Below the pieces are notes generated by a model, which saw nothing but the letters and a program-made list of their open reading frames with translations, did not search any database and was not told the DNA's origin. Positions 3,566 to 61,759 of a DNA stretch of 64,000 bases are shown piece by piece (within the stretch, counting starts at the first letter, position 1; the number at the start of each line of letters is the position of its first letter). The stretch comes from Marsupella aquatica (taxonomy: Eukaryota; Plantae; Marchantiophyta). The stretch spans positions 24,371,538-24,435,537 of the forward strand of contig OZ316895.1 of NCBI GenBank assembly GCA_973895155.1. The letters are read 5' to 3'. Position numbers and translations under genes: made by a program.

Positions 3566-3573
3566 ATTATCGG

Positions 3574-32500: not shown

Positions 32501-33842
32501 AACCATTTTTTGGTATTTTACATTGTAACTGTCAGGATTTTATAATTCTTTAATTATTTATAGTATTTAACCTTACTTTTCAACCTATAAAAATTCAAAG
32601 GACAACATCAAGGACAGCCCACCCACATTGCTTGTTCAGTTGTGTGTTGCTGATCCCTCTTGCAATTTGACTGAATGTGTTCATCATTGTGGCCCTCAAT
32701 GGTGGACCTTGCTACCCATCACCCTCACAAATCCCAGCAGTCCTTGGTGCCCAAATGTCTACACAACTCTTTGAGCAAGCAACTTGGTACCTCTAGCACC
32801 TCCGATGACAACTCCCATACAAAGCCGTACTTGCTCCCTAACTCGACCGTTGTTCAACGGTCCTCAAAATTTGCACAAGCAACCAAACACCTAGATAAGT
32901 AACCCATAGGATCTAGGAACTCCAAGACTAGTGTCTCAACTCAAACTCAATAGACATTGATACGTAGGTCAGCAAATAGAACCTCGGTCTTGGGCCCGGG
33001 TAGCCTTGCCATAAGCCGAAGCCAGAACCAGCACCTAGTGTTCGTCCAGAACAACCCCTGTACAGTGTTGCTCATGCTTCTCCACTTCCTATTTGTCACT
33101 GGCTGACCGCCCTATCCCCAGGACATGCTCATGGCCCAAATAAGCTAGCTTGTCCCAAAGCTTGTCATAAACGCAGGTTCGTACTAGTTTGGCCCCGACT
33201 CTAGCAACCATCTTTAAGGTTCCACCCAACTGAGAGTCTAGGGGTCAAATGCACTTGGACCTCAATACCCATGCCTAATTTTCCTTGTCTCCCCAATGCA
33301 AGCTCCCGTGGGAAACTGAACATGGCTTGGATGTTGCTTCGACATGATTTGACAAGAGGGCGAGATAGCCCCCGCAAACCTCAAGACCCAAAGTCACCCC
33401 AGACCCAACTGAGCTCAGGAGGATGTAGTCCTCCTCAAGAGTTTTTCAATGCATCCATTAAGTCCTCCAACAAACTTCCCATTGAGAAGTTATCATCGTT
33501 TTCGTTTGGTGTTTCTACTTAGTGTTGCAACTCTCACGGCTCACAACTTGGGCTTGCCCTTGGCCCTCAGGGAGACACCACTCCCTTCACATATACTTTT
33601 GGAGACCTTCCATCCTCGGACCGGCTTTGGTCCCCTTTGTTTGGCCATCAACTTGGACTCTAACCCACACACATGGACACGCAACTAAATTGTTATGCCC
33701 ATACGAGCCCTATGCCAGTACGTGTGTTGCACTATGCAAGGAGGACCGGCCCATAGGGAGTCGGCTAGGGCATTTATGGGGCAACAGGAAGCACATATAT
33801 GCTAGGGTGCACATTTCTTCCATCAATGGTTAGGGAAAATAG

Positions 33843-34553
33843 TTAATCAAATCCAACGGCAATGAATCTTTCCCACCTAGAGAAGCTTTTTTGTATTTGG
33901 ATCAGCCTATTCATTAAAAATGTATTATTATTTGATTTATGTACATTTGGGCAATGAAAAGTGTACTTTTGGGCATGGAAAAGTGTACAATTGGCCTCAA
34001 GAGTGTACATTTGGGCAAATTTCCCATTTGCTAGTTTTGTTGAATCAATTTGCCACCGAACCAAAGTAATTACTCCCCAATGGAAGTTGGGAAAGTATTG
34101 TGATTCCACCACATCTTTCACAACAATCCCTACATGGTCCTTGCCAAGGATTTCATCATCAACCGCTGCCATTTCTTGAGGCACAGTGATGGTCCCCGTG
34201 GCAACCCTATTGGTTTGATCTGAACCAATGTATAGTTCCACCAACTCTGACATCCAATTTGACCATTGGAAATAGTCACAATTAGTTTTAGAAATTTCAG
34301 CTAAGGGAGACTCCACAACAAAACTCCGCTCTATGTTGATATCATCACCCGCATTCTTCTTTGAGAAACTCTTTCTACTTCGGACATCTGCCACATCCCA
34401 GAGAACCCAGGAGTCTTCTGCCTCGTCAATTATTTCAGCCCCAATGTGTTTGTAAGGTAAAACCGTACTCCCATGAATGACATCAATGACCCTCACACTG
34501 ATCACCAAGTAAAATGTTGTGACATCTTTCCATTGGATTTGTATTGAAAACAA
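33843..34553 (-). CDS. exon encoding TNP1/En-Spm (TnpA-associated)-like domain(s)
   Basis: VRVIDVI...VLPY....IDEA..SWVLW followed by VELY...RVATGTI...DEILGKDHVGIVVKDVV...LVRW resemble tandem CACTA TNP1-type beta domains; an AG acceptor immediately precedes it on the minus strand. Confidence 0.5.
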   Translation of the reverse strand: MFSIQIQWKDVTTFYLVISVRVIDVIHGSTVLPYKHIGAEIIDEAEDSWVLWDVADVRSRKSFSKKNAGDDINIERSFVVESPLAEISKTNCDYFQWSNWMSELVELYIGSDQTNRVATGTITVPQEMAAVDDEILGKDHVGIVVKDVVESQYFPNFHWGVITLVRWQIDSTKLANGKFAQMYTLEANCTLFHAQKYTFHCPNVHKSNNNTFLMNRLIQIQKSFSRWERFIAVGFD

Positions 34554-34744
34554 CTACAACGTATTCACTTACACAATTTCAAATGTAAAGTATTAGTTAA
34601 GAATGGTCCCAAATAGGAAGCAGATAGGTGTCAACCCTATCCAAGGACAGTGCGCAAATTGGGATTATCCCCATCAAGCAAAATAGTAGGTCCCTCAACA
34701 ATCCCTATCTAGCCCTAAGATCCTTGATCCCAATTTAGACGTCG

Positions 34745-35715
34745 GATAGGGATGATCCATGTTCAATCCCTGTCCAAACAGCGGATAGGGTCTATTAGTG
34801 TCCAAACGGCTGTCAAAATGGCGGATAGGATCTGTCACTATCCAAATGGCGAACAAGGATCATCCCTGCCTAAACGGCGAATAGTGTCTGTCACTGTCCA
34901 AAAGGCGGACACGGCTGATCCCTATCTAAATGGCAGATAAGATCTATTTCCTGTCCAAACAATGGACAGGGATGACTCAAGGTCGTCCGGATCACTCAGG
35001 GTTCCTATCAAGTAAAACTTTTCATATTGGGGTCCCATCAAGCAAATACCTCAAATGGCAGACAGGGATCATCCCTATCCAAACGACGGACACGGATCAT
35101 ACCTATTGAAAGGTTAGACAGGGATCATCCCTGTCAAAATGATGGACAGGGTCTATCACTGTCCAAACGGCGAACAGGGATCATCCCTGCCCAAACGGCG
35201 AATAGTGTCTGTCATTGTCCAAAAGGTGGACATGGCTGATCCCTATCCAAATGGCGGATAGGGTCTATTCCCTGTCCAAACAACAGACAAGGATGATTAA
35301 AGGTCGTCCGGATCACTCAAGGTTCCTATCAAGTAAAACTTTTCATATTGGGGTCCCATCAAGCAAATACCTCAAACAGCGGACAGGGATCATCCCTATC
35401 CAAACGGCGGACACGGATCATACCTATTGAAAGGTTAAACAAGGATCAACCCTATCAAAATGGCGGACAGGGATCATCCCTATCCAAACGGTGGACACGG
35501 ATCATCCCTATCCAAATGGCGGAGAGGGATCATCCCCATCCAAACGGCGAATACGGATCATTATCCAACCAGAGGATCCGAAATGTAGAGGATCCTCTAC
35601 AGTCCTCTAGTTCATACGGTCCTCTACAGTCCTCTATGGTGGACAGGGATCATCCCTATCAAAAAAGCAAATAGGGATGATCCCTATCCAAACAGCTAAC
35701 AGGGATGATCCATGT
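34745..35715. repeat. array of ~28-bp units with palindromic core GGACAGGGA-tca-TCCCT(G/A)TCC and a 321-bp higher-order duplication
   Basis: Many copies of GGACAGGGATCATCCCTATCCAAACGGC; the block starting GGTCGTCCGGATCACTCA occurs at 34981 and 35302. Confidence 0.9.
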
Positions 35716-36559
35716 ACAGACATGACTCTACACACTAATTTAATGTTTGACCAAAGAACGGTTGGATTGAGATGATCCCAATCGTGAGTTGGGCTGGGAT
35801 CTTTTCACTTCAACCCTAACTTAGATATACAATTCCTAAATTTGCGAATATCAATGGAATATGCTACAATTCTGTAATTAGGTTTAAAGTTACCTGTAAT
35901 GGAAATGATTCTTGAACACAAAACTCACTTTAGTTTATGTTGTCAAACCAAGGAATAAAATACTATGTTGAAGGGGTAGTTATCAGTAAGCTGGTAAACT
36001 AAATGCTTCAGGGGTGTGGAAGAAATTAAAACTAGATGTTCTGTCTGGAAAACAAGAGTGGCTCAATGGGGCTCCGTAATGAACGGACCTGGTTGAGAAA
36101 CTGAATGAAAATCTAGAAACAAAAATACAAAATGAGGACCAGTCGGACCATGTCACTTGCTTATCAAATGATTTACACGACAAATACGTATTTACTCCTA
36201 CTAAAATCGTTTGTTATTGTATGACGGGAACATGGAGGGACGCTATTAGGATTCTATTGCATGTACGATGAGTATGTTTATTTCCGCTCCCGGAAATGTA
36301 GTTTTTGATCAAGTCTACCGACTAGTCCCGTTGCTTTTGATCAAGTCCCATGGACTAAGCCACACACACACTCCTACTGGTCGCTGGTGGAGTGCTGTCA
36401 CCACCCCCCCTACTCACATTGTCGACCAATCCATGTAAGTATTCTTTAGACACTTCTTGGGGAAAGAACACAATCGTGAACCAGAAAAGATAACGCCACA
36501 CCAAAACTTGAGGAATCAAACCAAATCCATATCTTTTGGCAAAACGTCGTAACACATTG

Positions 36560-39040
36560 CAAGGACAACCCGGCCTCTTGCCGTCTGCCCAACTACTGCC
36601 TCACTAGGGCAAGTGCTACACCTCTACCTCACTACTCTGGCTTGATTCCCTCTTCTGGCTATGAGCTAACTTCCCTAAGCAAACAGTAGACTGAGTTCCT
36701 CCCTAACTACTCTGGGGCTCTCCCCCTAATTACCAAAAAATATACCAAAGCACCCCTCATGGGGCCACAACGATGGCGGCTTACCCTAGCGGCGCCGCTA
36801 AACCCTTCACTAAGAAACCCCTAAACTAAAAGCATGCGACACACACATGCTTCTAAAACCCTAAACACTAAACTAACAATGGGGCCGACGGTGCCTTCGA
36901 TGGCGCCCCAACATTACTCCGTGAACCGTGAAATTGCAAGGAACTCCACAATGGCCAAAACCAGATGCCCTCCACGTGCACTTCTGAGTTCACCCCTGGA
37001 TAGCCCTCCTCCTCCTGATCATGAATCACTCAACCGCTCTTGAAATGGACATCGGACGACCAAGTTACGGCCGTTTTGTATCCCGTAAACCCCCTGGGCC
37101 CTCAGTCTTAACTAATACGTGGAGGACGTGCAAACGCTCGAAGGGTAGTTTTTATTCATTTTGAACTAATAATTATAATTATCACTAGTAATAAGAGAAC
37201 TTTTAATGGTAAAATGGAAATAACAAGGGGTAAACACGAAAAGGGCCCGATCGCAGGGGGGTCCACTTCTTTTACATGGAGTGAGGGCCCAGGGCGTAAA
37301 CCCAACTTCGTCGGGCCCTAACTTGCTCATCCTGGCTTCATTTGAGGAGCGTCGCCTCTTGTTGGAATCAGCTCTGCGAGCTCTTTCCAACAAGCCTGTG
37401 AGTGACCCCTCACAAAAAAGTTGGAAAGTCAAGGGGCCGTACAACCACGTCCGTACGACCACTCTAATCCTCCTCCTTTTCACTCACGGTGCCCTCGCTT
37501 GAGCCCCGTGAGTGGGCCCCCTCATCACTCTCCATTGGAGTGAGTGCCACTTCACTCCTCTTCTTCTTCACCGGGGTACTCCTTGTGCTAATGCTCCCCT
37601 GCTTCCTCAAATTGGCCAAGGCCTACCACGCCTTGATGTACCCCTCACCAATGGTGTCCTTCCATAAGGCCGCCTCTTCACCGGACCGCAACTCCAACGA
37701 TAAAACCTGCCCGGTGGCCATGGGAGTCCCAGGGGTGACAGATTGGGGTGGCATTCCCGGGGTCCCCGTGTTGACCTGAGCCTCTCGTAACAATTTACGT
37801 ACCTCCCTGAGCTTCTTCTCTAAGCTCTTGCTCTTCTCTTGACTCTTCTTGGCTGCATCCAACAGGGGTCCATACTTCCCACTGACTTCCTTCACCACCA
37901 TCTCAATGGTCTTGGAGATCAAATCCGGGGAGAGTGTGGAGCTAGGTGTGCAGGGGCTCTTCCGTTTCCCTGGACTCAAGGCCTCACTCCTCTTAGCCCT
38001 TGTCTCAAAGATCACCATTTGACTCCGTAGTACTCCCACCTAGGCCCTTAACTCCACCACTTCTCCAGAATTCTGCTTCTCTTTGGCCAATGCCTGTTTC
38101 AATACTCCAACCTCTTCCGCTTCCTTGGCCTTGGTGGACAAGGCTCCCTTCAAGTTGGAGATCTCTACGTGAGCTGCTTGGAGAAGCTTAACCTTCTCAT
38201 GAATGGCCTCCTCCTTGGCCTTGATCACCTCCTTCATAGACAGGGCACTCTGCTCCAAAGTCTCTACTCTGGCGGTGGCCTGCTTGAGAGAATCTCTCAA
38301 TCCGTGGACTAGCTTGAGTCCCTCATGGACTCCCTCCCGGAAATCCCGTAACTCCGCCAGGTAAACATCAGGAATGTCGTAGACCAGGGGCTCCTCCGGA
38401 TTTCCCACAAGTGTATCAAAAGCCACTCCAATGTGGAGTCCTCGTCTTGGCCATTCATGAGAAGAGAGAGAGACTTGTTGCCAGTCTAGTCTTGCTCCTC
38501 CCCCAGTCTCGCGCCTCCTTTTTCCCGGGTTTTGTTGGTGGGCTCGCGGCCCTATGCAGGGCTCGCTCCCCCCTCGCGGTACCCTCTTCACTCGTAGAGC
38601 CCCATTTAGCGCCCCCGTCCCGGCTGCGCCTCGGCTCGCCGGTTGCCATTTGGCCCCCCTCGTGGAAGGGTATAAGGTGCCTGCCCTGCCCCGGAGTGCT
38701 GCGCCCCGGCAACAGTGCGCCCCATAGCCGGCATCCTTATGGGGTTTAAAATCCCCCCCTTTTACTCCCATTTTCTCCCTGCGCCCATCCTGCGTGCCCC
38801 GGCTGCTCACCTTGGCCGCCCACTCGTGGCTCACCGGCTCGCCTCCTTATGGAGGCTTGCCCTGCAAACGGGGGATTTTAATTTCCCCCCCCAAAGGCTC
38901 CCTTTTATTCCTCTTTTTACAAGGGGGTCTCAACGATAGCTCAAGCAAAACGGTAAGTCCTATGGGGTTGGCCCTAGCGCTTGTTAAGGTCCCAAAATAT
39001 TTGCCCGCTTAGGTCGCCCGCAAATCTTAGAACTGTTACA
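36560..39040 (-). mobile_element. LTR-like unit (Gypsy-type solo LTR?) containing a decayed coiled-coil ORF (38834-37623)
   Basis: Minus strand begins TGTAACAG at 39040; GC-rich; ORFs 38040-38834 and 37623-38039 are in frame across one TAG; TTTAGGGTTT motifs near the other end; left boundary and TSD not found. Confidence 0.45.
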
Positions 39041-39894
39041 AGAGAAAGAATATAAAGTCACCCGGGGCACCATCAACCTATAATGGCGGAATTAACTAAA
39101 AAAATTTAAAAACGGCTTATTTACAGTGGCTATTAACAAGGCACACCCTTCTGCAACCCATTATTCATGATTTTGAGTGATAGGGACCCCGTCACAGACC
39201 AGCCCGAGTATCTTATACCATTTGTTGAAGATCGCTCTTACGGATAAGACAATGCGTGATCAACCTTAAGCAATGGCGGAGTTTAGGGTCGAGTGGATTA
39301 GGTAGCGCACTCAACAAAGTTGGGCGGCGCACTTTAGGGCAGCCTTGCATTTAGGGTTTGCCTCGCACGGCTACATGTATGTCTTGCCTCCCACGTACGT
39401 TTCACTCTGCCTTGCCTTGCCTTGCCTTGCCTTGGGGGGGGGTAAAGGAGGCAAGATGTCCCACTTGGGCCTCATTCTTCTTCCCTCCTCCGCTCGCTCT
39501 CCTCCCTCCTCCGTCCGCTCAGGCTCCTCTTCTCCACTCCTGCTCTCTTGCGCTCCTTTGCTCCTTTGCTCCTCCGCCCCATTTGCTTCCAATCTCCCAA
39601 GGACCCACTCGTTCACTCCTTTGCTCCTCCGCCTCCGCACTAAAGTTTTTCCCCGTAGCCGCCATGTTAATTGCCCTATATCTAACGCTGTGTGATCCTC
39701 CACATGTCCATAAAGCCACGTGTCACAAGATGGATCCATCTAGACCTATTCAAGTGTGTCTGGTCTGTGAGCCAACAAAGGAGACAGACCTCTCATCCAT
39801 TGAGGACGTGGTAGAGACGGCCCTCAAGGATTCCAGAGCCTTTCAATCGCTCAATCCAAGTGAGTATCTCAGTGACAAGTTTAATATTTGTGTG

Positions 39895-40350
39895 GTGGAC
39901 AAAGATGATCCCTGTCCAAGTAGAGTCCAAATAGAAGATAGTGATCTTTATTAGGAATTGGACAGAGATTATCTCTATCAAAATGGATAGAGATCATCCC
40001 TGTCCAATTGGATAGATATCATCTATTTCCAAAATGACGATAGAGGATGTCCAATGAGAGGATCCGAACTGTCCTATCAGATGATGCTAAGGACCTTTAT
40101 TAGGAATTGGATAGAGATGATCCCTATCCAAGTAGAGGATAGAGATGATCCCTGTCCAATTCCTAATAAATGATGTCAGTATCCTCTGATCGAACAAAGA
40201 TGATCTTTATTACAAATTGGATAGAGATGATCCCTATCCAAGTAGAGGATAGAGATGATCCCTATCTAATTCCAAATAAACATTGTATGTATCCTTTGAT
40301 CAAACAAAGATGATCTTTATTACAAATTGGATAGAGATCATCTTTGTCCA
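39895..40350. repeat. intronic array of the palindromic GGATAGAGATGATCCCTATCC motif, ~110-bp higher-order period
   Basis: Repeated TTGGATAGAGATGATCCCTATCCAA; same motif family as 34745-35715. Confidence 0.85.
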
Positions 40351-41708
40351 AACTGTGAGACAACCTCATCTTTGTCGATTAGAAAAGTAAGATTTCCAAA
40401 CTAATATGCATGGATGGGACTATTGCAAGGAGCGATCTGAATGCATTGAAACCAGCAATTTCAGATGCAGATTGCTCTAAGGGGGTCTTGTTGGAGCATA
40501 GCAGAGAAGAATTTCGTTGGGGCCTTGAGTTCTCTAGAGTTGATTTTGATTTCCTTAGACGTCAATGAGACAGGATCCCATTTTGTGCATAAAGGTCAGA
40601 ACCGCAGATCAAGAGACTCTTGTACTCGGACCTGTAGTCTTCATTGGAATTGAAGGAAGAGGGTTTGTTTTTGCATTCTCGAGCTCCATGAAAGGATAGA
40701 AAGGGGTATTCTTCAGAGTTCAATGTTGAGTGGTCTGCAGCTGGAGAACTTGGCGTGATGGCAATGGGCTTTTTCCCTAAGTCATATTCAACTCAAAAGG
40801 CGATTGGTGGAGTGAAGGGGATTCATCCACTTAACATCATGTATGGGTTTCAATATGTGAAGCTGAATATCCATAAACACCAACAGAATTATACATTTCC
40901 GGTGATATGGATTTTAAATAATTTGCTTGACAAGGCAGGACTCCTATCTTTGGAATCAGGTGTTCTCCTTGACAAGCAAATTGCATTTGCGGAGGAGTTT
41001 GCAATGGATAATGAAAAAAAGTGGGTAGAATCATTACCCAGCCTACACCTACAAATGTTGCACCAATAGTGGTAAACAATCCTCCAGTAGTTGTTAACAA
41101 AGAAATTCCGAAGCCTAGAAAAATATCTCAGGAGACAACAACAGGGACTACAAGAACAACAGTCAGGACAGCCACCAAACAAGTGGTAGAGAAGCGAACA
41201 CAAAGAGAGAGGAAAGAGCGCGAGAGACCTGAGACATTGTCGAAAGAACCCGAGAAGAAGCCAGTAGGGAAGAAACAGAAAACTGATGAGAAGGAAATGA
41301 TGTTCTCCAGAGAATACCTTAGCAGTACTATACTTTTGGAATAAATGAACCATTTTCTATTCCAGTGGAGAAAATTTATCCTGCTCTGACAAGATTATGT
41401 TACAGGATGCGCAATAGTGCCCATGTGAAGCACATTGCCAAATCCATGGTGAAAAACCCTGGACATGAACCTCACGTTGCGGACTTGCCGGGGGACTTGC
41501 TTCCTTACAATCCGAAGCTTAGAAAACAGCTCCATTTTGATAGCACGAAGAGCAACCGCAAAGACTTTCTTGTAGGAGTGAAGAAAGGAGAGATTGTTTT
41601 CCTTGCCATCAGTGGGCAACATTCTGCTAGGGCGGCCAAATGGGTTCTCAAGTGGGCCAAAACTGATGTCAAGCTGATAGTTTTGGCAAAAAAGTTAAAA
41701 TATAGGAA

Positions 41709-42346
41709 GGCCTCATTCACAATTGGAGGACCCAAAAGGAACGTCACACTCAGAAGTGACCATAGTTTATTATGCTTTAGGACATCATTTGTAAGGTGTA
41801 ATGAGATGATATGCAAAATTTGATGTACTATACTTAATAAACATCCTATAGGTTGGTAACATTAATTAAACTATCTAGCATTTGAGACTTTGAAGCTTTC
41901 CTTATATGTCCTTCAAAGATCGATAAAAGGACTTGTCACGCAACGAGTCACATCATTTCAGGACTCGAAAGGACTCTAAAACTTGCATTTTAGACAATGA
42001 AATTTTACCAAGGCATGCATACTAATAGAATAATCTTATATTTTAAAACTCAAATATTGACACACACTAAACCTTTATGTACAGGACAAAAATAATCAGT
42101 AATTTTGGCTTATTTAGGGCCATCAATAATAGGATCCCTTAAAAAAGTTAAAAACTTGATTTATCTACATGGTGAGGTAGGTTACACCATGTAAAATAGT
42201 CTTGTGAAAAAATTAGACTTAAATGTCTTGAGATAAAATCATGATGAAGCTTTTTCCATGTTACAAAAGTCATTTTTCACTAAAAAAGCATGTTTTTGAG
42301 TCCTGAAAGTGGTTCCTGTGAGGTACACCCAATTGTGAATGAGGCC
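41709..42346. mobile_element. 638-bp non-autonomous DNA transposon, 18-bp perfect TIR, 4-bp TSD GGAA
   Basis: GGCCTCATTCACAATTGG (41709-41726) / CCAATTGTGAATGAGGCC (42329-42346); GGAA at 41705-41708 and 42347-42350; excision restores KYRKSRLLSD. Confidence 0.92.
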
Positions 42347-42453
42347 GGAAGTCTAGATTATTGTCAGACCTTACACCATCGACTATACTGGTTGAGCACT
42401 CAATGAGATCAAATGTCATCAATTCGACGATGGTGTTTCAATCGTGCTTCAAA

Positions 42454-43118
42454 CCCTGGGCCCCCAACATTATTAATAATGGGCTGGACGTGCGAACGGA
42501 TGAAGGGTGCAAAAAATCTGATTTGAGATTAATTTTTATAATTGGCTTAGAAATATCAAGGGATGGTTTTATTCAAAGAACCTTTTCTAACTAATATAGG
42601 CTTATATAAATGTCACCCAAGTTAATATGCTTCAAGAGGTGATGTAATATGGATGTGACACGCGTCACAATAGGATTGGTCCTTGTGGTCACCCTTTATT
42701 GGAACATGTGTATATGACATATAATTATGCTTGCAACATCTATGATTCAGAGTAGTTTAGGACTTTGGAGCTTTTGAACCCTGACTACCCTGCCATGTGG
42801 TTCAAAAATGCCCCAAAGTTGAAGTTTGGGGTTAAAGGGTCACGAACACAAAAATGTATGTACCCAAAACCCTTCTAAAACACTCCCATCAGTTTTAGAA
42901 CCGTTTGCACATGATAAATTTATAACTTTTCAAGGCTTTCATAAATGGTGTAAAATGTGAAATTATAATATCTCAAAGGGGCAGATTTATTCTCCAAAAT
43001 TAAGTTTTTAAGAATAACAAGAGAAATTTTTATAGGCTTCCAAAAATAATAAGGGGTACTAGGGAGGGGGGTGTACGCACGTATACCTCTTTAGTTTACA
43101 AAGGCTGGGGGCCCAGGG
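42454..43118. mobile_element. 665-bp non-autonomous DNA transposon, 13-bp TIR, 8-bp TSD GCTTCAAA
   Basis: CCCTGGGCCCCCA / TGGGGGCCCAGGG; GCTTCAAA at 42446-42453 and 43119-43126; excision restores SCFKDTIVHARKQF. Confidence 0.92.
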
Positions 43119-43244
43119 GCTTCAAAGATACAATTGTTCATGCAAGGAAACAATTCCTTGAATGTGGAAGACCAAGAAATCCAAAGCAAGGGGACAACCA
43201 ATCAAACGCCCAAGACAATCAGAAATTTCAGGTGAGTTCTTGTT

Positions 43245-43428
43245 TGGACAGAGATGGTCTCTGTCCAAGAGGTTGACCGTCGGTTACATTGATTTTAGTT
43301 CAATATATATTTTGGGTTATGACTTGGATGGAGATGGTCTCTGTCCAAGAGTGAGACCGTCCATTCTATAGATTTTACTTCATTCTACTTTTGGTTATGG
43401 CTTGGATGGAGATGGTCTCTGTCCAAGC
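43245..43428. repeat. three intronic copies of the palindrome TGGA(CA/TG)GAGATGGTCTCTGTCCA, ~80-bp period
   Basis: The first copy is a perfect 10-3-10 palindrome; lies in the intron starting at 43232. Confidence 0.85.
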
Positions 43429-45936
43429 AAGCGATTGTGTGTTGTCAAATCTCATTGATTGTAGAAAACTTACAACATTCTCCCCTAATTTTAGACTGTA
43501 GGATTATTTGGCATTGGCAAGGATGACCATGGGGAGAAAAGACTTGAAAAATGTATGTACTGGTTACTTTTTGCCAAGAATGATCTTTTCAACTTATGGC
43601 GGTTAGTGTGCCAGATGTGGATTGATGCATGGAAAACTTCCTGATGGAGCTGGTACATAGGGAAACAAAAGGTCCGAAAAGGCAATAACAGTCGCAATGT
43701 TTCATTGTTTTGATGGTGAAATCTCAAATAGAGATTTGACCAGAATTTTGAACAAGGTGAAGTTGGGTCAGGTTTTATTGAAGAAGGATCCGACTAATAA
43801 GTCAGATGTTCCAGCGATGGAGGAGTTTGCAAAGGAGGTGAAGATATTGATCAAACTGAAGTCTCTTATTGGAGATTACTACTTCAAGAAGGATCCAAAA
43901 CACTTCCCAATAGATATTGATTGGGTTAAAGTAATTGAAGTCCTCCCATTATTGGGTCCGGAGTCGAAGTTGAACAGGTGCCAAAGAGCAACTGGTGAAG
44001 TATGGTTGACAAATTTATTAAAATCTAATCATACAAAGCAGAGTGATGCCAATGACATTGGTGATGCGTCTAGATGATATTTACTGTCAAAAGTTTGGCG
44101 GTGGGACAAGTTCTCGGACCCAACCGTGGATCACATTTTTTAAGACTGTGGATCCGGAGTCGTTGGAAGAACAATCTCCAACATGCCCTCTTGCAATTGT
44201 TGATTTCAGCCGACTTAGCAGAAGGAGTGGACTAAAGCAAAGATTTTGGTCCTCTTCCAGTATATAGTAGAGCTACCTCGGAATCCTACCATCGTTGTGA
44301 TGATAACTGTCCATCCGGGTTATCTTGTACTGAATGTCCTAAGCGCTCTTTGTAAATTAGGACATTAAAAAACTCTAAGTATTCACATTGAGTATGGGAG
44401 TTGTTACCGAGATGATCAACCTCACCCTCACGACTCATGTTGGAAGGGAGGAATAGAAGATCTAAGAAATATGATGACCCCAAAAGAGGCGGCAATACTT
44501 CTGCACATGGCACCTCAATTTGAGACTGTCGGCGCTCCGGGTGGGTGGGTGAATCCTCACGCCAAACCCACATGGATGATCCAAAAGATCATCCAAACAC
44601 TGTCCGAGCCGGGGGATTTGATTCTTGACTTTTTCTTTGGCAGTCAAGTGATGAAGGCATCCCTTTTTTCTCAATGTGAATGTTTTGTTTATTGTGACTC
44701 TCAACATTAGAGACATTTTGTGGAAGCATACGCTTCGTTCCTTTGTGAGAGGGTTCCCACCATCAAAGATCGTTATGATCGCTAGCTATGTCAGTGGAAG
44801 TTCTAGACATTGGGAACCCTCTTCTGCCGCTGTTGCTATTCAGGATGAATTAGATGGTGATCAAGAAGATGGAGCTGACCAATCAGTCAAAGACGATGGG
44901 CCATCGGAGGGGGCATACGTGAAGAATTTGGATGACCAAGTTGGCGAGGGTGAAAATATTGACCTTGTGGAAGACAATATGATTGTTGGATCTGCACCTT
45001 GCAGTTCACCAGTTATAGATGTTGCCCCCATGGGCCCCAACGAGGGCCAGTATGATGATAACTTGGATAGAGATGGTCTCCATCCACAAGTGCCTAGACA
45101 AGAGATGGAAGTTGATACGTTTGAAAAGCTTTCTTCAAACAACCTTCTCAATCAAGGTGCGGAGAGGCATGGTGAGTCCAATGAACTTGACACATTGGGA
45201 TTGAGACCACAGCCCATCCAAGTAGCTGACATTCCCGTGAATGAAGCAAGTGCATCCACGACTGCTGACAACCAGGCAGGTGCTTCAATTTGTCCCGATA
45301 CACTCTTTTCCGCTTCTGATGGCAAATTGGTGTTTGTTCGATCACAATCAAGAAGTCCCGTTATCCTTCCACTCTCAAAAAAGAAAGGGAAGAGAGTAGG
45401 ATCAACTGGATATAAGTCACTTGAATATGATCGTCGATGTTACGTGTGGAAAAGTGGACCCGATGTAGGAACTGAAGTTCCGTTGGATGCTGCTCAATCA
45501 ATTTTGAACAATGACTTGTACAAAAAGCACAAGAAAGATCCAACTTATAGAAGTGGAGAATTGGGATTGATAACTCCGGTTTGGTCTGCACCTTATTGGG
45601 TAGAGGGTACCTCCAATGTCAATTATGAGATCTAACAAGAGCTCGGTGATGATATCTTGATCGATGAATATGGATCTCATTGTTAGCCAAGGGCTAAGAT
45701 TGAGCCATGTGACCTTAGTTATCAATTTGATATAATGTAGTATAATTATACTTCAAGCCTAACAATTAGAGCATAAGTATCAATATCAATCTCCTCTTTA
45801 CGGTTTCTCAATGAATACGATTAGTATGCATATTTTCTTTGTGGTTGGCCTCTTGTGTTTTTGAATTGAGACGATCTCTATCCAAACTTCAAATGTGTTT
45901 TTTTTTCTCTAAGATTGGTATTTGTTGCACTTGCAG

Positions 45937-46848
45937 AACCAAGACCTTGTTCCATCAAGCGCAAATTGCTGATTTTGGATCTTAACAAAATACTTTGGGA
46001 TTCGGTTGAATTCCAAAGCAAGGGCAAATCCAGAAATGTTGTGACCCCAAGTGGAGTTCATTGGGATAGAAAAAATGGAATTAGTCGCATGTATACAGAA
46101 AGGCCAGGGCTCCATGAGTTTTTAAAGTTGGTTTTTGACCAATTTGACGTTGCAATTTGGACATGTGTTGGGGTACAACGAACAGTGAAAATGTTGAACA
46201 TGATGTTCACTACTGAGGAGCGGCTTAAACTTAAGTTTGTATTCACACAGGTGGAAGCCTTTGACACAAGCATTCAAAGGCGTGACATTACAAACGGAAA
46301 GGCAAATGTGCTACTGAAGGATTTTCGGGTGGTATGGAGTGGGTTTGGAAATCTATATGATAAAACCAACACCCTCCTTGTGGATGACTCCGCCTAGCCT
46401 TAAGGCATTTGCCAATCCAAGCATGACTGGACTATTTTCAATGCCCTACACGCATGCCAATCGTGGATATAATTTTCTTCTAACAATTCTTTGGCCTTGT
46501 CTTGAGAAACTAGCACATGCAAGTGACATTAGATGTTATCTTCTTCTGAACTCTCCAATGTGGTCTCTATTGCACATAAAGAGAGAGAAGGTAAAAAATG
46601 AAATTACTTATGATCAACTTAGTAAGAGATGTGCAACAAAAATTGCGTTTACGCATAGTGTGTTGGACCTCAATAGCAATGAGATTCCTTGGAACGTGAA
46701 GCACCGTATATGTAGTTTACGTCCTGAGGCAGAACTTGACAATGCACTTGTCACCTCACTTGCTAAAGCATTTGTAGGAAGGGACTATTCAGGTCCGTAT
46801 AGAGAAAATCCCAAACATTTTTTACGGGAGATTATAGCCATTATTTAG
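45937..46848 (+). pseudogene. FCP1/NIF-family HAD phosphatase-like ORF with one frameshift near 46395
   Basis: RKLLILDLNKIL, RPGLHEFLKLVFDQFDVAIWT, LLKDFRVVW, NTLLVDDS then, in the shifted frame, KAFANP. Confidence 0.8.
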
Positions 46849-49800
46849 GAACAACACCACCAAATTTTAGCTCCCTGAAGATAAAGGGGCTTGCAACCAT
46901 GATAATAGGGTAGATAGTAAAGGAGACAGGGGCACGTGCTCAAATACACATTGTAAAGAGCACTTTGTTTAGAGATCTGACTCATGTTGAGCCCCTTAGA
47001 TAGAAGAAATGCATTGTAAATTTGGAGATAGTAAATTGTATATTATTTTATAATCTATTTGGAGTTATCTCATTTTGTTACACATTATCAAGGGTACTTG
47101 GGCTTCCTTGTGCTGAAATGATTTTATAAGTATGATCTCTATCCTACTATTATTTGTGAATTAATAATAATACAATATGTATTATTCATTACTATAATAC
47201 TAATATGATTTGGCCTATAAAGTGTACATTTAGGGACCAAAAAGTGTACATTTGGGTTTCTTAAAGTGTACATTTGGGGACATGAAAGTGTACATTTCAA
47301 GACTGATTTGTGAAGAAAAGAAAATACACTTTTAATGAATAGGTTGATTTGGACGAAGGACAAAAAAATGCGGGATCCCTTATTGTAGTTGTAGATATAA
47401 CTTCCTAGCTAGACGTCCATAAGTGGAGTGCCTTAGTTAGCTTGTTGTGATCAGGCTGATCCTATGCTCATGCCTATGCCCTCAGAACCCGTTGTCAACT
47501 AGGGGTTCCAGACAGTCACACCTGGGCCGCGTCATATCTCGTACGCTAGGTGTCCATTGCGCATGAAATAAACTTCTTTAGCCTTGGACCCAAAAGGAGC
47601 TCTCACTCAAGCCCTCAAAACTCAAAGTTCATTCGGGGATCCGGACGGTCCACCCTGAGCTTGACCCTTCTCATGACCCAACCAGCTCCATGCTAGTCTA
47701 AATCCTTAGTGTGCATCACTAGCTTAGTGCATCGCCTTGGCTAGTGCAACGCCTTGTTGCCCACTAGTCTCCCAATACTTAGTCCCCACCAGATGGCCGT
47801 TCCTGAGGCCTGGACCATAGAAGAGCTCGGCGTCGGTGTCAGCGACGCTGGAGCTAAGGGTTGTTGAGTTTCGCAACTCCCTCCTTAATATAGCATGTTG
47901 AGTCTAATGCTTTCCTATTTTAACTTCTTCCTTAACTTACTTTCCATTCCGGGTTTCCTTTTGACCCATGTTTTATTAATGCACCAACCTTGTGTTTGGC
48001 CTTCAGGATCCCGACCCCAGATTAGGCACTTTTTGCTCCTTTGTAGCGATTTAAGTATAACCCTGTGTTTTTCTGTTGGTTTGGTTCCTTAAGATGACTT
48101 TACTCTTATAAGCCACTAGCCAATCTTTGAAAGTAAATAGAGATAAGGAAAAAAACTAAGACCTTGCAAAAATAGATTCCGTATCGGCAAACATCCTGGT
48201 CATGCATTCAATTCAAATATGTTCCAAATTTGACTTGCCCCAACCTCTTTCCACCAGCTTGCACCCTCACCTTCAGCTATGCCCCCAAAGTGATTGTCTA
48301 GAGGCTTCAATCTAGGCATAATTATAGTGGGCCGTGAGAGTAACTTTTGGTCACCATTATATATATACTTAGTTGGATTTGGCAACCTAGTGTACTTGCT
48401 GTTCCTTACTCTTGTTGGTTGTCCATTCAACTGGCCATTGTTTCATGATTGTCAACTTTTGACTGTGGTCAATTTTCCCCCTGGCAGAGACAGCCATGCC
48501 TCTCGAGGACTGCAGTTAACTATGCCCCATTAGAGCACTGTTTGTTGTTCAATGACCCTTAATTGTGCACTCCCCCCCCCCCCAACTGACCACTGGACTT
48601 ATCAAAGCTGCAATAACTTTTGCATGTTACCTCTCATTGTTGAATCATCTGGGGATGGCTCGCAAGTAACTACAAATACTTTCCCAGTCAATCTTTTTGT
48701 TGATAATTAGTTTGAGTACCCCTTGGTTCTGTAAGCTTGTTTTATTGAACTATTTGGAGCCATGAAGAGTTGCACATTGCAATAGATAGATAAGAGAACA
48801 AAGATTAAATGGAAGATTCTAAATAAAGTGAATTTTAAAGGTAGTTGGGAAGATTTCATTGAAAGAAAATAGCCAGGGGTACATTCATGGTAATACCAAG
48901 GGTACTTCCCCATGGAAAATGTTTTCCTTAGTACCTGGATGTCTATACAATACATGTAACATTACATATAGTTCATGCAAAATATTATTTTGTCCATAAT
49001 AGTTGAAAAATCTTAGAATCCCTTGGTATTCCTCTACTCATAATAGTTCATAATAGTTATGGTGTTTCTTAACTTTGGTTGCTACTCCTCTTACTATCCA
49101 TAATAACCAAGGCTAGGGTTTCTTAATTCCATGGTAAGTGTTAGAGAAGTTGAAAAGTTTCCTGGGTTTCTTATGTTATCTTGGTAATTGTTAGAGTAGT
49201 TAAAGAGGTTCTTTCTACTTGTCATTATTTGAAAAATATGTAGATTAAATAGAAAATTGGAACAGATTACCAAAAAACACTTATATGTCAATCAAAATTC
49301 ATCCAAAGATTATTTTCTTTCACCCCTATTTTACCCATTTCTTTATGTACTTGAAATTTTATATTTTATATTTTATTGTTTTTAAAGTTACAAGGTGTAA
49401 CAGTTTTTCTTTGTCTGCCTCAAACACGAGTAGTCAAATTTGGGTTTTCTTGCATAATTAACAGTTCTTGTTTGTGACAAATATTGTCAATGTGATTGCA
49501 CGTGCATCCTGGAATTTGGGAAGAAATTTCACATGGGGTTCCGTAAATGTAACACCAAGAGAAAAGGAAAGTTCAACTTTGGATCCACTAGTGGCTTTAC
49601 TCTACTCCAAAATTGACCCAAGATTAGGTTTGACTGGCCCCACCATTCACATAGAACATTGCTGCTTTTAGATAATTGTAGGACCAGGCCGTGAACTTGG
49701 AAAGGAGACTTTGCTTTAACACCTAGTCACTCAGTTAAAATATTCTTAAAAATCCCATAAGTTGGGCCCTCTTTGAAAAAGTCGTAAGAATGGGCTCATG

Positions 49801-50542
49801 ATAAGTCTGCCCGTCCAAATGTCGATAAACCATTATCGGCATGAAACACAGTCACCATTTTTCCTTAAGAGGACCAGACCTAGCAATATGACTTAGTTAT
49901 GCCTACTCAGAATTAGTCTACTTGCTCACAACTCTACTTGAAAGCAAGGTTATCGTAACTGTCACACCTAGTGATGCATGTAGACTTTAGAGACCATGCT
50001 AGTGAGCGTTCGTTTTCATTTTTTTGATGATACATGTGGCTGTTTTTTATTATTATGTTGACTTTATTTCAGCCTACGAGGACTGTCTTCTTTGTTAATT
50101 TTCCAATTTAAATTTATTGAAGGCCCTCAATATATTATATGTTTCTATAATTCTGTCTATGCACACCGTTCGATAGCCCATTTTTAGATTATTTATTTAG
50201 TCCCCCCCCTTCTGAGCACAGGGTTGGGAGCCCTTGACCTCTGACTCCCCAACCATGACAACTACCAATGTGCTATGGAATGTTCATGATATTATATTTA
50301 GCCCTTACTAGCCCTGGCATGCGCCTCCTTCCCACGGGCCTTTACTGTTTTGAGACTTCCAGACTGATGGGATTTGATTCTTCCCCTCCAACCATATAAA
50401 TATAACAATAAAATTTCCAATAGTTCATATCAAATGATATTTTTAATAAACCTCAATTTCAATTTCATTGATAGAATACCGCAGTTTTCATATACTTTTT
50501 GAAGAAGTTAAAATAAGAGCATTAGAACAAACATGCTATATT

Positions 50543-50885
50543 TGTTGAGCATAGACGACATTCACAACGGCAAGCCCATGAACCATCCACCGCACAATAG
50601 TCCACACAGAGAGATACGTGGTTCACCTCCACATGAGGCTACGTCCACAAGAACACACAAGAGCTTTACTGCACTCTAGACCGACCGGCCATACCAAGCA
50701 TCCACAGCACAAGCTCTCCCTATCTCTCAACTAGCTCCGTAACAATGAGCCTAAGTTCCACTAGGGTCTGGCATCAGCCCTGGCTATATGCACAACAGCA
50801 CTACCGTAACCTTAGCTAGGTCCTAACCCGAGTTAGCCTAACTGTGGTTAGCACAAGAGTCACAAGACTAGAGCAATATCTAACA
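50543..50885 (-). repeat. 3' LTR of the copia element (343 bp)
   Basis: TGTTGAGC...CTAACA, followed on + by AACTCCCCCTT (PPT AAGGGGGAGTT on -). Confidence 0.96.
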
Positions 50886-51092
50886 AACTCCCCCTTGACT
50901 CTTGTCTTGGGGATTGGACTAAATGCTACCATATGGAATCCTCAGCGGGAAGTTCTAGACAATCACCAAACCAAGTCTCCCTCTAAAAACCACAAGGGTT
51001 AACTAAGGGTTAACTAGAACTAAGCCGTAGCCTAACAGGAATGAGTAATCCATATACAAATAGTCACACATTGCTAAATAACTCTACTTGCA

Positions 51093-52006
51093 CTACAACT
51101 GCAAAACCTGCAAAGTAGCACGGTGTCTTGAGAAACTCTCCAAATGAATCACTTTGGTAAAGGCATCAGCGGGATTGAGTTTTCCATCAATCTTGACTAG
51201 CTCAAAAGTTTTATCAGACACTGTTTGCCTGATAAAATGGTACCTGATATCAATGTGCTTCACCCTGCTATCCATCACCTGGTTAGCAGCCAAGTGAAGA
51301 GCACTTTGACTATCACAGTTTAGAGTCATTTTTCCATGCTCTAAACCCATCTCCGCGATCAACTTATCCAACCAAATTGCTTCCTTTGCAGCTTTTGCTG
51401 CTGCAACATACTCTGCTTCTGTAGTAGACTGAGATATGCACTTCTGCAAGGTAGATTTCCAACTGATACATCCTCCTCCAAGAGTGTATACAAACCCAGT
51501 TGTAGATCTCCTTGTATCCAGACAGCCTCCATAGTCAGAATCTACATAGCCAACTAACGTTCTATTTGATCTATTATCAAATAGTAATCCATAGTCCTGT
51601 GTTCCTTTCACATACCTGAGAATCCATTTCACAGCTTCCCAATGTACCTTCTCTGGATTTGACATGAATCTGCTAACCTTGCCCATCGCTAGGGCCAAGT
51701 CAGGCCTAGTACAAGTCATCAAATACATCAGACTGCCTACTGCCTTCTCATAAGGAATCTTAGCCATATATCAGACCTTTCTCCACAGCATCCGTAGGAG
51801 AGAAAGCTGATGATAACTTGAAATGTGAAGCTAAAAGAATACTCACTGGCTTATAGTTCTCCATGTTGAATCGTGCAAGTACTTTCCTCACATACTGGCC
51901 TTGACTCAAGCACAACTGTCCAGTCTCAGAGTTCCTAAAAATCTCCATCCCTAAGATCCTCTTGGCCTTACCAAGATCCTTCATCCTGAATTCAGCGCTC
52001 AATTTT
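51093..52006 (-). pseudogene. copia RT C-terminus and RNase H
   Basis: FRMKDLG, PYEKAVGSLMYLMTCTRPDL, GYVDSDY, STTEAEY, CDSQSA, KHIDIRYHF, NPADAFTK; frameshift near 51765. Confidence 0.93.
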
Positions 52007-55000
52007 TGTGATGCCTAGACAGGAATCACTCGGCCGGTTAAGTGGGTAAAGCAGGAAGGCACCCTAGGAACACCTTAGTATAGGGACAAAACAAGGAAAA
52101 TATAAACAATTAGGGGCAACCATGGAACCCGGGCAGAGGCCGGAGGTAAGGCTGAGGGTGAAAACCCGATTAGGGTTAGGGTGTGTTAAGCGTCGGCGGC
52201 TAGGAAGGATCAACGGGAAGAAGGACCGGCAGAGGAGAGGGGTAAGGAGCGCTTGCAGGAGATGGTGGCTCATTTGTGAGCACGAACTAGGCAGACGACT
52301 ACGGGAGGCCAACTACTATCAGCTGCTTAGGCAAGCACTCGGGGAGAGAATAGATACCGACGATCGACCTAAGGAGGGTATGAGCAACGTCAATCAAGCG
52401 GCACATTTCTGGGGATGCCTGTTCGAACGGGCAACTGAGTACATCAAGACTTACGAGGACGAGGAGTCAGAAAGGGCAGCTCGAGAACGGCAGGAGCTCG
52501 CTCGATTGTGGGAGCTGCAGAAGACGGCTTTCTTAGGAGGCGAACTCATCAAGGACGAGTTCCTGTGGACGCCTACTTCCAATCAACTCGACGATCTTCT
52601 GTTTTGCAAAGACAGCGTCGTCGGCATCCGAGAGGCCATCAAGAACTGCAACGACATACACTGGGAATTAAAGGGTAGCACGGAAAGGTGGACCCAGGCA
52701 ACGGTGCTAGGAGAAACCTCCACGGCAGCAGAGATGAAGAGGAAGGGGGCCGTCAACGATGAAGCCACCCCGGCAAAAAGAACGAGGTCGGCGGCACCAA
52801 AGAGGCCAGCCGAGCAGCAGAGCAGGAGGCAGGGAGAAGCCGAAGAGGAGGAGGTCGATCCCATCAAGGCCATTCCAACCAGGGATAACACCTGGAAGGG
52901 CTGGGCGGCAACCCTACCGGTGGAGGTGCAACTACATTTTGCACGGGAGGAGGATGCATGCTTTACGGCCATGCAGACCAAGAAGTACCAAGGCTTCATG
53001 GCCGGATCCGGCTTAGAGGCCTTTGTAAGATTACCATGGCTGAAGCCAGAGGTACCGGAGTCAGACCTATTAGAATTCGTGGGTCATGGGAACCCGAGAC
53101 CAATTGCACGAGGATATATGGGAAGGATTTCTATCTTACTCCCAAGGGAATTGCCGAAGTGTTTGGCTTGCCGATAGGCAATAAGACCAAAGTTGATACC
53201 AGGAAGACCTTGCCTGACAAGGAGTTCCGGTCATTCCCCGGGCCATCAACGAAGAATGGCTTCTTCCGGAACACCTGCACCAACCCGCACATAGGAGAGA
53301 TGATCGACTTCTTGCGGGTGACCATGCATTGTAACTTGCCGAGGGCAGAGATCAGCAAGGCACAGGTCTATCTGGCAGAAAGGCCAGACCCAAGCCGGGA
53401 CTACAACGGGTACCTCCTCAACCAATTGAAGAAGATCTTAAAGGAGGAGCAGCAGGTAATCGGCATGGGGAGCGTGTCGCGGCTTGGCTATCACATGCCG
53501 CTGTTGTGCCGGTATGCCAGAGGTCAGACTTTTGCCCCGGTACTTCCCCTGCAGGTAAGGGCACCCGAGGAAGCTCCAACGCCGAGGCCGTTGGCTGAGA
53601 AGCCTCAACCACCTGTTAGTCCTACGATCGAGCAGGTGTTTAGGCCCAGGAAGGAAGACTTGCCGATGCAGCAACCAGGCATGCAGAGTCTGCTGAAACT
53701 ACTGGAGAAAGAAAAGAAATCGGCATCGGCAACAACAACGGCAACGGCAACAATGCAGGACACTACTACAGAGGTAGGCCTACACCGGCTCACAAGAGAA
53801 AACCCCTTTGCTGGAGACAAGGAGAGAATCAGGCCGGAATCCAAGCCAGGTGTTCGAATGTACGTGGGAACCTCAAGCTCCGAATCTGAGGCAGAATTGC
53901 CTGAAGCTCCTACCGACAAAGAGGAGAGGGAGAAGCCGGACGTCCAAGAGGTAGAGGAGGCAGTGGAGGACTGCAGCCATGATAATTCCGGCTATGGGTC
54001 GGACCATCATGTTCCAGGAGTAAGGACCTGTGGCCGGTTTGTCCCCACACTTCCAAGGGTAGTGCGAGGGGACCCCAACCAGCAGAGTAGCCCTGAGTCT
54101 CCCCCACCAGATGTTGCTCCCCCGAGCTTCGACGGCATAAAACAGACGGTGCAGGAATTTCAGGAGCGAATCAAGCAGGAGGAGGAGGCCGCCTTGGCTA
54201 AGGAAAAGGATTTACCAGGAGGAGATTGGCCGGAGGACATCAGGCGGCTAGCCGAAAAAGGAAGCAAACCTCTAGCCACGATTGAAGAGATCCGCAGGAC
54301 GGCTTGGGAGCAGAGGCCACGATGGGCGATGCCGATCACTTCTACTTACTCCACCTACGCTAAGAATAGAGCCATGGAGTATGGTGAGATGTGTGGGGAA
54401 CTTGCGCTCGGCATCTTTGGAGAGGAGTTGGAGGTAGGACCCTTTTTCCATAGGGAGCAGTTGGAGAAGCACCAATTAGAAGAAGCGGTGGCTTTAGAGA
54501 GAAGCAAGAAGGACGAGGTCATTCGGCGGCTTAGGAGGATGGAAGCCGAGATTGAAGATCTAAGGGCGGCCAAGAAAGCCCAAGATGAACTGCGGATTAA
54601 ACGACATGAGCTGAACATCATGCAGGGGCAGTTGGACACCGCGCAGGCTGATAATCAGAATATCAAGGATAAACTGACTCAGACGCAGGAAGAGTTGGCC
54701 GACACGATCAAAGAGAGGGAGAAGTGGAAGCAAGAGCTGAAGAATACAGAGGAGGCCCACATAACAGCCAACAGCCGGGCCATGGCGGAGACCCAAAGAA
54801 AGGAATGGGCGTTGAAAGGGGAGCTCGAGAAAATCCGCGGAGCCCTTGAGCAGAAGGAGGTCGAGTTAGGGAAATCCTATCAAGGGATTATGGCGCTGCA
54901 GCAGGAGCTTGCGTCCCTGACGACCAGCTTCAAGGCCGACCTAAGGGAGAAGGATGAGATGCTCGAACAGACTTACGCCAAGATGAACCAGATGGAGTCT

Positions 55001-59207: not shown

Positions 59208-60068
59208 TCACAATATGTCATCATCATCGAGTAAATCTACCTCATGCGAGCTCGATGCTGCGTTCGCAGAGGCAGTAGGGACCTTTACTCGACAATCCCT
59301 TTTCATGTGGCCTGGCTTGCCACAATTCCAACATGCAAGAGGCTTCCTCTCTTGCAATTTTCCTCTGGATTTAGATCTCCCCCGTGATGTAGATCTAAAC
59401 CTGTTCTGCCCATTCGTGCGCTGTGTTGCTCTTCCCCTATTCACATTGAGTGCAGTGCCAGAAGAAGATGTTATCTGTGATTGACCCAGCTTCTTCTGAG
59501 CATCATCAGACAGTAAAGAGCTTACCACCTCATTATACGAAATGGACTTCAGATCTCTGTACAAGAGCACCTGTTTCAAGCCCTGATATGACGGCGGTAA
59601 GGAGCTTAGCAGAAGCAAGGCCTTATCCTCATCTTCAACTCCTTTTCCCAGGTTTGACAGATCAACCGCTAGACTGTCAAACTCATCCAGGTGATCCTGC
59701 ATCTTGCTCCCTTCCTTGAGCCTGAGGCTCATCAAGAGAGACTTCTTGTATAGCCGGTCTGACGCATCTTCCCGGTAGTACTTCTCTCTTAGAGCCTTGA
59801 ACAGTGACGCGCAATCCGCATAATCATCCAGCTGCTTGATGATGTGCGGCTTGAGATATAGCATCACTGCATTGACAGCAATCACCTGCTCCTGTCTCCA
59901 TTGCCTCACTAAAATCTCCTCCTCTCCATCATACTGCTCTCGCGATGAAAGCAGATGAGCTAAGCCCATGGCCCGTAGAACACCCTTCACTTGCTTCTCC
60001 CAGAGCAAGTAATCAGTACGACCATCGTACTTCTCCACCTCAAACTTCACTCCTCCAAATCTAGCCAT
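59208..60068 (-). CDS. gag: copia Gag (UBN2-type) with CCHC zinc knuckle
   Basis: MARFGGVKFEVEKYDGRTDYLLW, LLLSSLPPSY, CWNCGKPGHMKRDC; the open frame extends upstream to 60257. Confidence 0.92.
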   Translation of the reverse strand: MARFGGVKFEVEKYDGRTDYLLWEKQVKGVLRAMGLAHLLSSREQYDGEEEILVRQWRQEQVIAVNAVMLYLKPHIIKQLDDYADCASLFKALREKYYREDASDRLYKKSLLMSLRLKEGSKMQDHLDEFDSLAVDLSNLGKGVEDEDKALLLLSSLPPSYQGLKQVLLYRDLKSISYNEVVSSLLSDDAQKKLGQSQITSSSGTALNVNRGRATQRTNGQNRFRSTSRGRSKSRGKLQERKPLACWNCGKPGHMKRDCRVKVPTASANAASSSHEVDLLDDDDIL

Positions 60069-61745: not shown

Positions 61746-61757
61746 GCTCTGATACCA
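61746..61757 (-). other. primer binding site complementary to initiator tRNA-Met
   Basis: TGGTATCAGAGC on the minus strand, 2 nt inside the 5' LTR. Confidence 0.95.
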
Positions 61758-61759
61758 CT

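Follow-up and report, generated by a model that had tools for sequence, protein, structure and literature searches.

The question raised by this locus is whether a land plant carries, on a mobile element, a gene that fuses a ParB-like domain to a bacterial-type DNA amino-methyltransferase and whether the encoded protein could still act as an enzyme. The locus lies in a stretch of 64,000 nucleotides from the liverwort Marsupella aquatica (assembly GCA_973895155.1, contig OZ316895.1, positions 24,371,538 to 24,435,537 of the forward strand), called the window in the following; all positions are those of the window, and the features are collected in Table 1. An initial annotation, made from the sequence alone, described a spliced gene at 39730..45635, interrupted by two miniature inverted-repeat transposable elements (MITEs), decayed in this copy and carried by a plant mobile element. 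This copy is a pseudogene with two MITEs, five frameshifts and four premature stops, and it resides in an element that is high-copy and dispersed. Judged from sequence comparisons, the gene is present in many copies, of which this one is dead, and with a probability of about 0.5 its protein would be a non-catalytic DNA-binding accessory factor recognising the palindromes of its own likely DNA transposon.

The two insertions within the ParB-like exon have exact inverted ends and target-site duplications, in the registers that were best among all registers tried, and their empty sites occur in other copies of the element. These other copies are known from short public contigs of related DNA in four runs, X1 to X4: the empty-site joint of MITE1 (41704>42347) was found in all four runs and that of MITE2 (42445>43119) in three of them. 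The 8-bp duplication of MITE2 has what we take to be a hAT-type length. The 4-bp duplication of MITE1 has the length tabulated for Sola1 elements in the Ectocarpus paper discussed below, a match of length alone. Excision in silico of each MITE together with one duplication copy results in a single open frame running from 41323 to the GTGAG donor at 43232, just as had been claimed.

The intron that follows this donor is found in relatives as well. In the Calypogeia gene model P0025, the ParB-like exon continues into the following exon precisely across 43232-43501 in phase 0, the metagenomic locus L001 carries a GT-AG intron of 109 nucleotides (nt; 99-207) at the same place, and six more database proteins start with intron-derived residues just ahead of this junction. 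The phase-0 position common to P0025 and L001 speaks for the intron-bearing gene of the initial annotation. Relatives were collected by a HMMER search with the read-through of 43502-44830 against 1.84 billion representatives, which returned 70 proteins; one of them, P0020, is a repetitive false match and was left aside. Among 30 entries looked up, five are named and all five are from liverworts, four from Calypogeia fissa, whose models sit on four different large contigs, and one from Riccia sorocarpa; a second Riccia model, P0080, came from a later search. In P0074 (1009 amino acids, aa) and in P0077 (1219 aa, from a contig of 3866 nt) the motifs SGQHS, VDFxR and DFFSGG lie in a single unbroken open reading frame (ORF), and both methyltransferase motifs occur within one ORF in 13 of 80 relatives. 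The MITE-free window is collinear with P0074 and P0077, showing 38.6% identity to residues 69-249 of P0074 over 189 aa, and 51% identity to P0025 over 157 aa. The comparisons support one intron-bearing gene that joins a likely ParB-type region to a methyltransferase-like region, and the proposed fusion of both domains in one gene holds. Moreover, the relatives conserve open frames of 700-1200 aa at 25-45% identity, which suggests selection on the protein.

The decay of this copy, which the initial annotation had recognised, was mapped by frameshift-aware alignment to P0025, P0002 and P0074. The five frameshifts lie near 41321, 43550, 43625, 44045 and 44217, and the four premature stops at 43658, 44366, 44708 and 45633. 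The stop at 45633-45635, formerly taken as the end of the gene, is premature and the coding end is the stop at 45684-45686; the part 5' of ~41250, the putative start at 39730 included, is covered by no relative. Stops at 44075, 44141, 44201 and 44216, which appear in a one-frame reading of P0001, are off-frame and were ruled out as lesions. In run X1 most of the contig depth reads through 44366 and 44708 with sense codons, and at 44627-44644 the majority letters restore the family motif DFFSGG; in the public contigs 4 nt are absent at 43625 in other copies. For these reasons several lesions are private to this copy. Further upstream, positions 40692-41066 gave no match in Pfam, PHROG or NCBIfam.

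The N-terminal domain is likely of the ParB type, as its motif layout and its language-model neighbours indicate. The layout resembles ParB boxes I-II, as judged by eye, and the Atlas (language-model) neighbours score 0.90-0.94, among them clusters with ParB_N (0.92, 11% of members), DUF3723 (0.91, 31%) and DUF6551 (0.90, 96%), the latter two of which we take to be ParB-like. No sequence match of this piece was found in Pfam, PHROG, NCBIfam-ParB or the PDB. At the P-motif, the window and all three relatives that cover it read GQHS (SGQHS), placing a serine at the position of the GxxR arginine; exchange of this arginine for alanine abolishes nucleotide binding (bioRxiv 2025.10.10.680097). The ParB assignment of the initial annotation is therefore kept as far as layout and neighbours go, without a fold or profile match and without the GxxR arginine.

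For the C-terminal domain, the motif X-I signature noted at the outset is borne out by profile and by predicted structure. Positions 44369-44707 match Pfam N6_N4_Mtase (PF01555) with 29.4 bits (cut-off 26.7, E 9.6e-07), next to weak matches to M.RsrI, CcrM and M.MboIIA. Between about residues 270 and 750 the AlphaFold model of the relative P0074 is confident, and its residues 463-758 superimpose on CcrM with a Z score of 16.9 (root-mean-square deviation 3.8, 223 residues aligned), followed by M.BceJIV (Z 15.9), M.RsrI (15.5) and bdelloid N4CMT (15.4); Foldseek gives an E of 7e-07 to beta-class amino-methyltransferases. The predicted structure supports a beta-class amino-methyltransferase fold in the permuted order IV...X-I. 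In the P0074 model the AIVDF strand lies ~30 residues into the domain, which we take to be where motif IV falls in beta-class enzymes. The letters LAIVDFSR do occur, at ~44190-44213, and relatives use this frame. The initial annotation had read it as decay of this copy, but [DNS]PP[YFW] is found in none of 78 relatives (0/78), and the 28 relatives showing the strand read DFSR (9), DFAR (5), DFTR (3), DFGR (3) or single variants (8). On these alignments, D-F/L-x-R in place of (D/N/S)PP(Y/F/W) is a family-wide state and not decay of this copy. Motif I reads DFFSGG in 23 of 32 relatives and is one residue shorter than that of M.RsrI.

It may be argued that these proteins are transferases which actively modify bases of DNA or RNA by means of a rebuilt site, composed of the DFxR aspartate and the HxE[FY]GxY strand, and which write N4-methylcytosine (4mC), N6-methyladenine (6mA) or another mark derived from S-adenosylmethionine (SAM) at the palindromes described below. 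The candidate residues are indeed conserved (D496 29/30, H554 21/26, E556 25/26, G558 25/25, Y560 22/25, K668 30/31, D689 27/31, G693 29/32, G694 31/33), the modelled fold is complete, and run X1 returns an intact DFFSGG. However, two prolines followed by an aromatic residue at the stacking position are seen in none of the 78 relatives, motif I is shortened, and the active eukaryotic 4mC enzymes of plants and rotifers use TSPPY/SPPY, a change from SPPY to APPA killing N4CMT activity (bioRxiv 2021.02.12.428880; PMC8885841). We consider such an active enzyme unlikely. The earlier doubt about activity applies to the family on the evidence of its alignments, and the protein is likely a double pseudo-enzyme, as the canonical motif IV and the GxxR arginine are both absent.

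The carriage by a mobile element is supported and can be described more closely. The element measures ~13.4 kb and is bracketed by two imperfectly inverted arms, 33901-33933 on the left and 47316-47348 on the right (33 nt, 85% complementary). A 6-bp direct repeat, TTTGGA, lies outside the register 33902/47347 and was found post hoc; no empty-site joint of the element occurs among the public-contig matches listed. Thousands of divergent contigs align to the element in all four runs, and the depth of the first empty-site joint relative to the identical flank contig is ~27, 62, 100 and 20 in X1-X4, which is read only as 'many copies'. Its coding pieces have a CpG observed/expected ratio of 0.33-0.55 versus 0.74 in two host genes, as would be expected of methylated repeat DNA. 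Separately, long contigs of run X3 over 41321-45901 belong to a subfamily that has diverged (~85% identity) and whose depth is even, at 2100-2400 (~80-100x that of the flank), which suggests a young homogeneous subfamily. The probable nested insert at 36121-39201 is GC-rich, has very high depth and contains a coiled-coil frame at 37626-38846 (-) with no Pfam match above noise. For the divergent left frame, the idea of a CACTA TnpA/DUF8039-type domain was without support in Pfam, PHROG and Atlas.

Within the element, a 25-bp palindrome with the consensus TTGGATAGAGATGATCCCTATCCAA has 23 sites at up to 3 mismatches, compared with 0 in 100 shuffles. A profile trained on these finds 35 sites, all within 34620-47146, against 0-1 in shuffles (n=20). 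Most palindromes fall into the two introns or the region 5' of the left frame; they recur in tandem with periods of 25, 28, 80, 110 and 321 bp, and are found neither in the remaining ~50 kb of the window nor in the MITEs or the nested insert.

The explanation favoured here builds on these sites. The element would be a cut-and-paste DNA transposon that is non-autonomous and moved in trans. A dimer of the protein may bind the dyad palindromes in the introns of the element, SAM may still be bound via the kept DFFSGG loop, and the protein would serve as a scaffold or reader for self-marking, anti-silencing or autoregulation, presumably with the product of the FCP1-like neighbour working alongside. 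This neighbouring gene has a frameshift near 46390, and its first motif reads DLNKI versus DxDxT. The linkage seen here, together with the Riccia model P0080, which joins the methyltransferase-like part to NIF, suggests that the FCP1-like and methyltransferase-like genes form a conserved cassette. A bolder version is quite improbable on the present comparisons; in it, a ParB-like clamp and a rebuilt, non-PPY methyltransferase would read the palindromes and write a non-canonical DNA mark, and RNA polymerase II on the element would be tuned by the FCP1-like phosphatase as third part of the cassette. If true, the cassette would represent a prokaryote-derived, VANDAL-like anti-silencing system in land plants, in transposons of the liverwort lineage, with a new catalytic chemistry.

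Several points weigh against the accessory-factor explanation. The profile behind the count of 35 palindrome sites was trained on 23 of them, and in the corresponding intron of L001 a palindrome of this kind is absent, as judged by eye. Contig depth is not copy number. A Pfam scan of 80 open frames in 33004-48089 revealed no transposase, and the imperfect ends and flanks that are themselves repeats make the borders and the superfamily unsure. No helix-turn-helix was identified in the protein. The ParB-only model, built from 4 sequences, has a mean predicted local distance difference test score (pLDDT) of 42 and no Foldseek match under E 3; its best Z of 5.2 comes from helices alone, and at this low pLDDT the model is uninformative and no evidence against ParB. 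Finally, the high conservation of the motif IV aspartate (29/30), of H554/E556/G558/Y560 and of the SAM loop also fits an unusual active enzyme.

The lack of a transposase among the 80 frames and the imperfect ends could also mean that what remains here stems from a different kind of amplified unit, such as a Helitron, a Polinton-like element or an endogenised segment of a giant virus, to which the possible 6-bp target duplication would add. A duplication of 6 bp is the length known for Polintons. However, none of the 80 frames matches, by Pfam, a viral family or one of capsids, polymerases, helicases or integrases, inverted ends with subterminal repeats are present and the algal precedents are DDE transposons, making this origin very unlikely. 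A further alternative takes the protein as a passenger, or as acting by protein contacts, with the palindromes being sites of the missing transposase or a local minisatellite. It would explain the tandem arrangement of the arrays and a ParB motif without its arginine, and phage ParBs can be activators without a DNA-binding domain (PMC13229309). We nevertheless hold it to be improbable, because separate 22-bp subterminal repeats already occupy the positions expected for transposase sites, the palindromes are internal and placed around genes, and palindrome arrays adjacent to ParB genes recur in red algal elements (bioRxiv 2025.02.11.637652).

The place of this copy within the family was examined by phylogeny, and its possible origin by searches outside plants. 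In a tree of 21 rows picked for length from ~80, which has no prokaryotic outgroup, the window groups with Calypogeia P0010 in a clade of 11 rows that has support (96/95), and the Riccia rows sit on long branches. Word-index protein searches with two window pieces as queries gave no match, nor did scanning metagenome and viral contigs for loci that resemble the window read-through; a second metagenome scan returned one locus, L001. Scans with the ParB motif in GTDB genomes and IMG/VR and a tblastn search of P0074 against 50,697 phage records were likewise without a match. That this plant recently acquired a ParB-methyltransferase from a phage or bacterium by horizontal transfer could be proposed because prokaryotes and phages typically carry both types of domain (bioRxiv 2025.10.10.680097), and weak PHROG methyltransferase matches exist (best E 7.8e-05, ~45 residues). 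This proposal is largely refuted, as no named prokaryote is among the 30 entries looked up of the 70 matches, GTDB, IMG/VR and the phage records are silent, and a spliceosomal intron is held in common within a deeply divergent family. Beyond the generic fold, these searches revealed no prokaryotic relative, and the horizontal acquisition of the initial annotation could only refer to an ancient event. An ancient prokaryotic origin is plausible.

Table 1. Features of the element and its genes (+, forward strand; -, reverse strand).
Feature	Position	Strand	Remarks
Divergent open frame, 236 aa	33846..34553	-	No Pfam match; Atlas matches all <0.9
Left imperfect inverted end and 22-bp tandem subterminal repeats	33901..34018	.	
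Palindrome array, 20 copies	34620..35786	.	Mostly 28-bp period
Probable nested insertion, palindrome-free	36121..39201	.	One X1 contig joins 36120 to 39202
Putative exon 1	39730..39859	+	ATG to GTGAGT donor at 39860; outside coverage of every relative
Putative intron 1	39860..40464	+	GT...TTTCAG, presumably spliced; 9 palindrome copies at 39895-40351
Decayed N-terminal coding stretch and Lys/Thr-rich linker	40465..41320	+	Frames with stops
ParB/Srx-like exon	41252..43231	+	Two MITEs within; SGQHS at ~41610
MITE1	41709-42346 (638 bp)	.	18-bp perfect terminal inverted repeat; 4-bp target-site duplication GGAA
MITE2	42454-43118 (665 bp)	.	13-bp perfect terminal inverted repeat; 8-bp target-site duplication GCTTCAAA
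Phase-0 GT-AG intron, 270 nt	43232..43501	+	3 palindromes, spacing 80 bp
Helical middle domain	43502..44045	+	Frameshifts near 43550, 43625, 44045; stop 43658
Beta-class amino-methyltransferase-like domain	44046..44780	+	VDFSR motif IV strand ~44200; motifs X-I 44555-44645
Acidic tail of low complexity, then a small C-terminal domain that is conserved (...DEYGS)	44781..45686	+	tblastn of P0002/P0012/P0072 reaching 45677-45680
FCP1/NIF-like HAD phosphatase gene	45937..46845	+	Pfam NIF E 5.2e-09; TIGR02245 E 1.4e-13
Right 22-bp subterminal repeats and imperfect inverted end	47214..47348	.	

Outside the element, the window contains further genes and repeats. A Copia-type long terminal repeat (LTR) retroelement at 50542-62104 (-) has Pfam matches to gag, integrase and reverse transcriptase and LTRs that are 97-99% identical; it is broken at ~51770-56500 by a GC-rich insert with frames of 369 and 774 aa that have no Pfam match. 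An intact single-frame STOP1/STOP2-like C2H2 zinc-finger gene with a Gln-rich N-terminus is located at 21622-23835 (-), and an intact frame for a UDP-glycosyltransferase (PF00201), whose 5' end carries a 49-bp tandem repeat, at 2123-3649 (-). Exons of a CCDC113/CCDC96 coiled-coil gene lie at 6185-8094 (+); this gene is presumably cilia-related, in agreement with a plant having flagellated sperm.

The closest described system is the accessory gene of the Ectocarpus transposon Sola1-1_Ec32, which encodes a ParB-like and an N4C/N6A methyltransferase domain and whose product, according to a proposal, binds and modifies the element that carries it (PMC12477816). Compared by description, both have the same two domains in a protein of ~1100 aa on a large DNA transposon (21.5 kb versus ~13.4 kb here), whereas the host there is a brown alga and its Sola1 transposase, AACCG ends, 282-bp terminal inverted repeat and 4-bp target-site duplication are unseen here. 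Red algal Plavaka elements (PAG2/PAG3) likewise carry a PF01555 methylase and ParB-like cargo, in Bostrychia PAG3 with tandem inverted-repeat arrays adjoining the ParB gene; there, methylase-SET and ParB-2-oxoglutarate oxygenase are encoded by separate genes, whereas here one protein is followed by an FCP1-like gene (bioRxiv 2025.02.11.637652). With CcrM, M.RsrI, M.MboIIA, M.PvuII and M.BceJIV the family shares the predicted fold and the motif order IV...X-I (Z 15-17), in contrast to which its proteins have no (D/N/S)PP(Y/F/W), a motif I shortened to DFFSGG and 8-13% identity. Marchantia MpDN4MT1a/b and bdelloid N4CMT are comparable as prokaryote-derived beta-class folds in a eukaryote. They are active host enzymes with TSPPY/SPPY, whereas the present family is repeat-borne and motif-less, and MpDN4MT1 has no additional domains (PMC8885841). 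Phage fusions of a ParB-CTPase fold with an N6N4-methyltransferase have the same domain order, from ParB to methyltransferase; they keep GxxR, whereas the present family reads GQHS at this motif and differs further by its introns, its long helical insert and its acidic tail, and no sequence relative was found (bioRxiv 2025.10.10.680097). The accessible sections of a survey of eukaryotic amino-methyltransferase clades include a chlorophyte Dam family fused to ParB and helix-turn-helix domains and inactive DIRS1-borne domains, and name no land-plant family of this kind (PMC4738411). Also the literature searched, in which subscription journals are thinly covered, yielded no land-plant description of a ParB-methyltransferase accessory gene. 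The architecture itself is already published for algal transposons; the land-plant form with both canonical motifs lost is new.

As a summary, the locus extends the ParB-methyltransferase cargo of transposons, proposed in brown and red algae to let these elements bind and mark their own DNA, to a land-plant lineage, in a form in which both domains are conserved yet without their canonical catalytic residues. The candidate target, a palindrome confined to the element, and the intact relatives P0074, P0077 and P0002 make the idea of self-recognition directly testable. At the same time, the findings are a warning that these genes should not be listed among the 4mC/6mA writers of plants.

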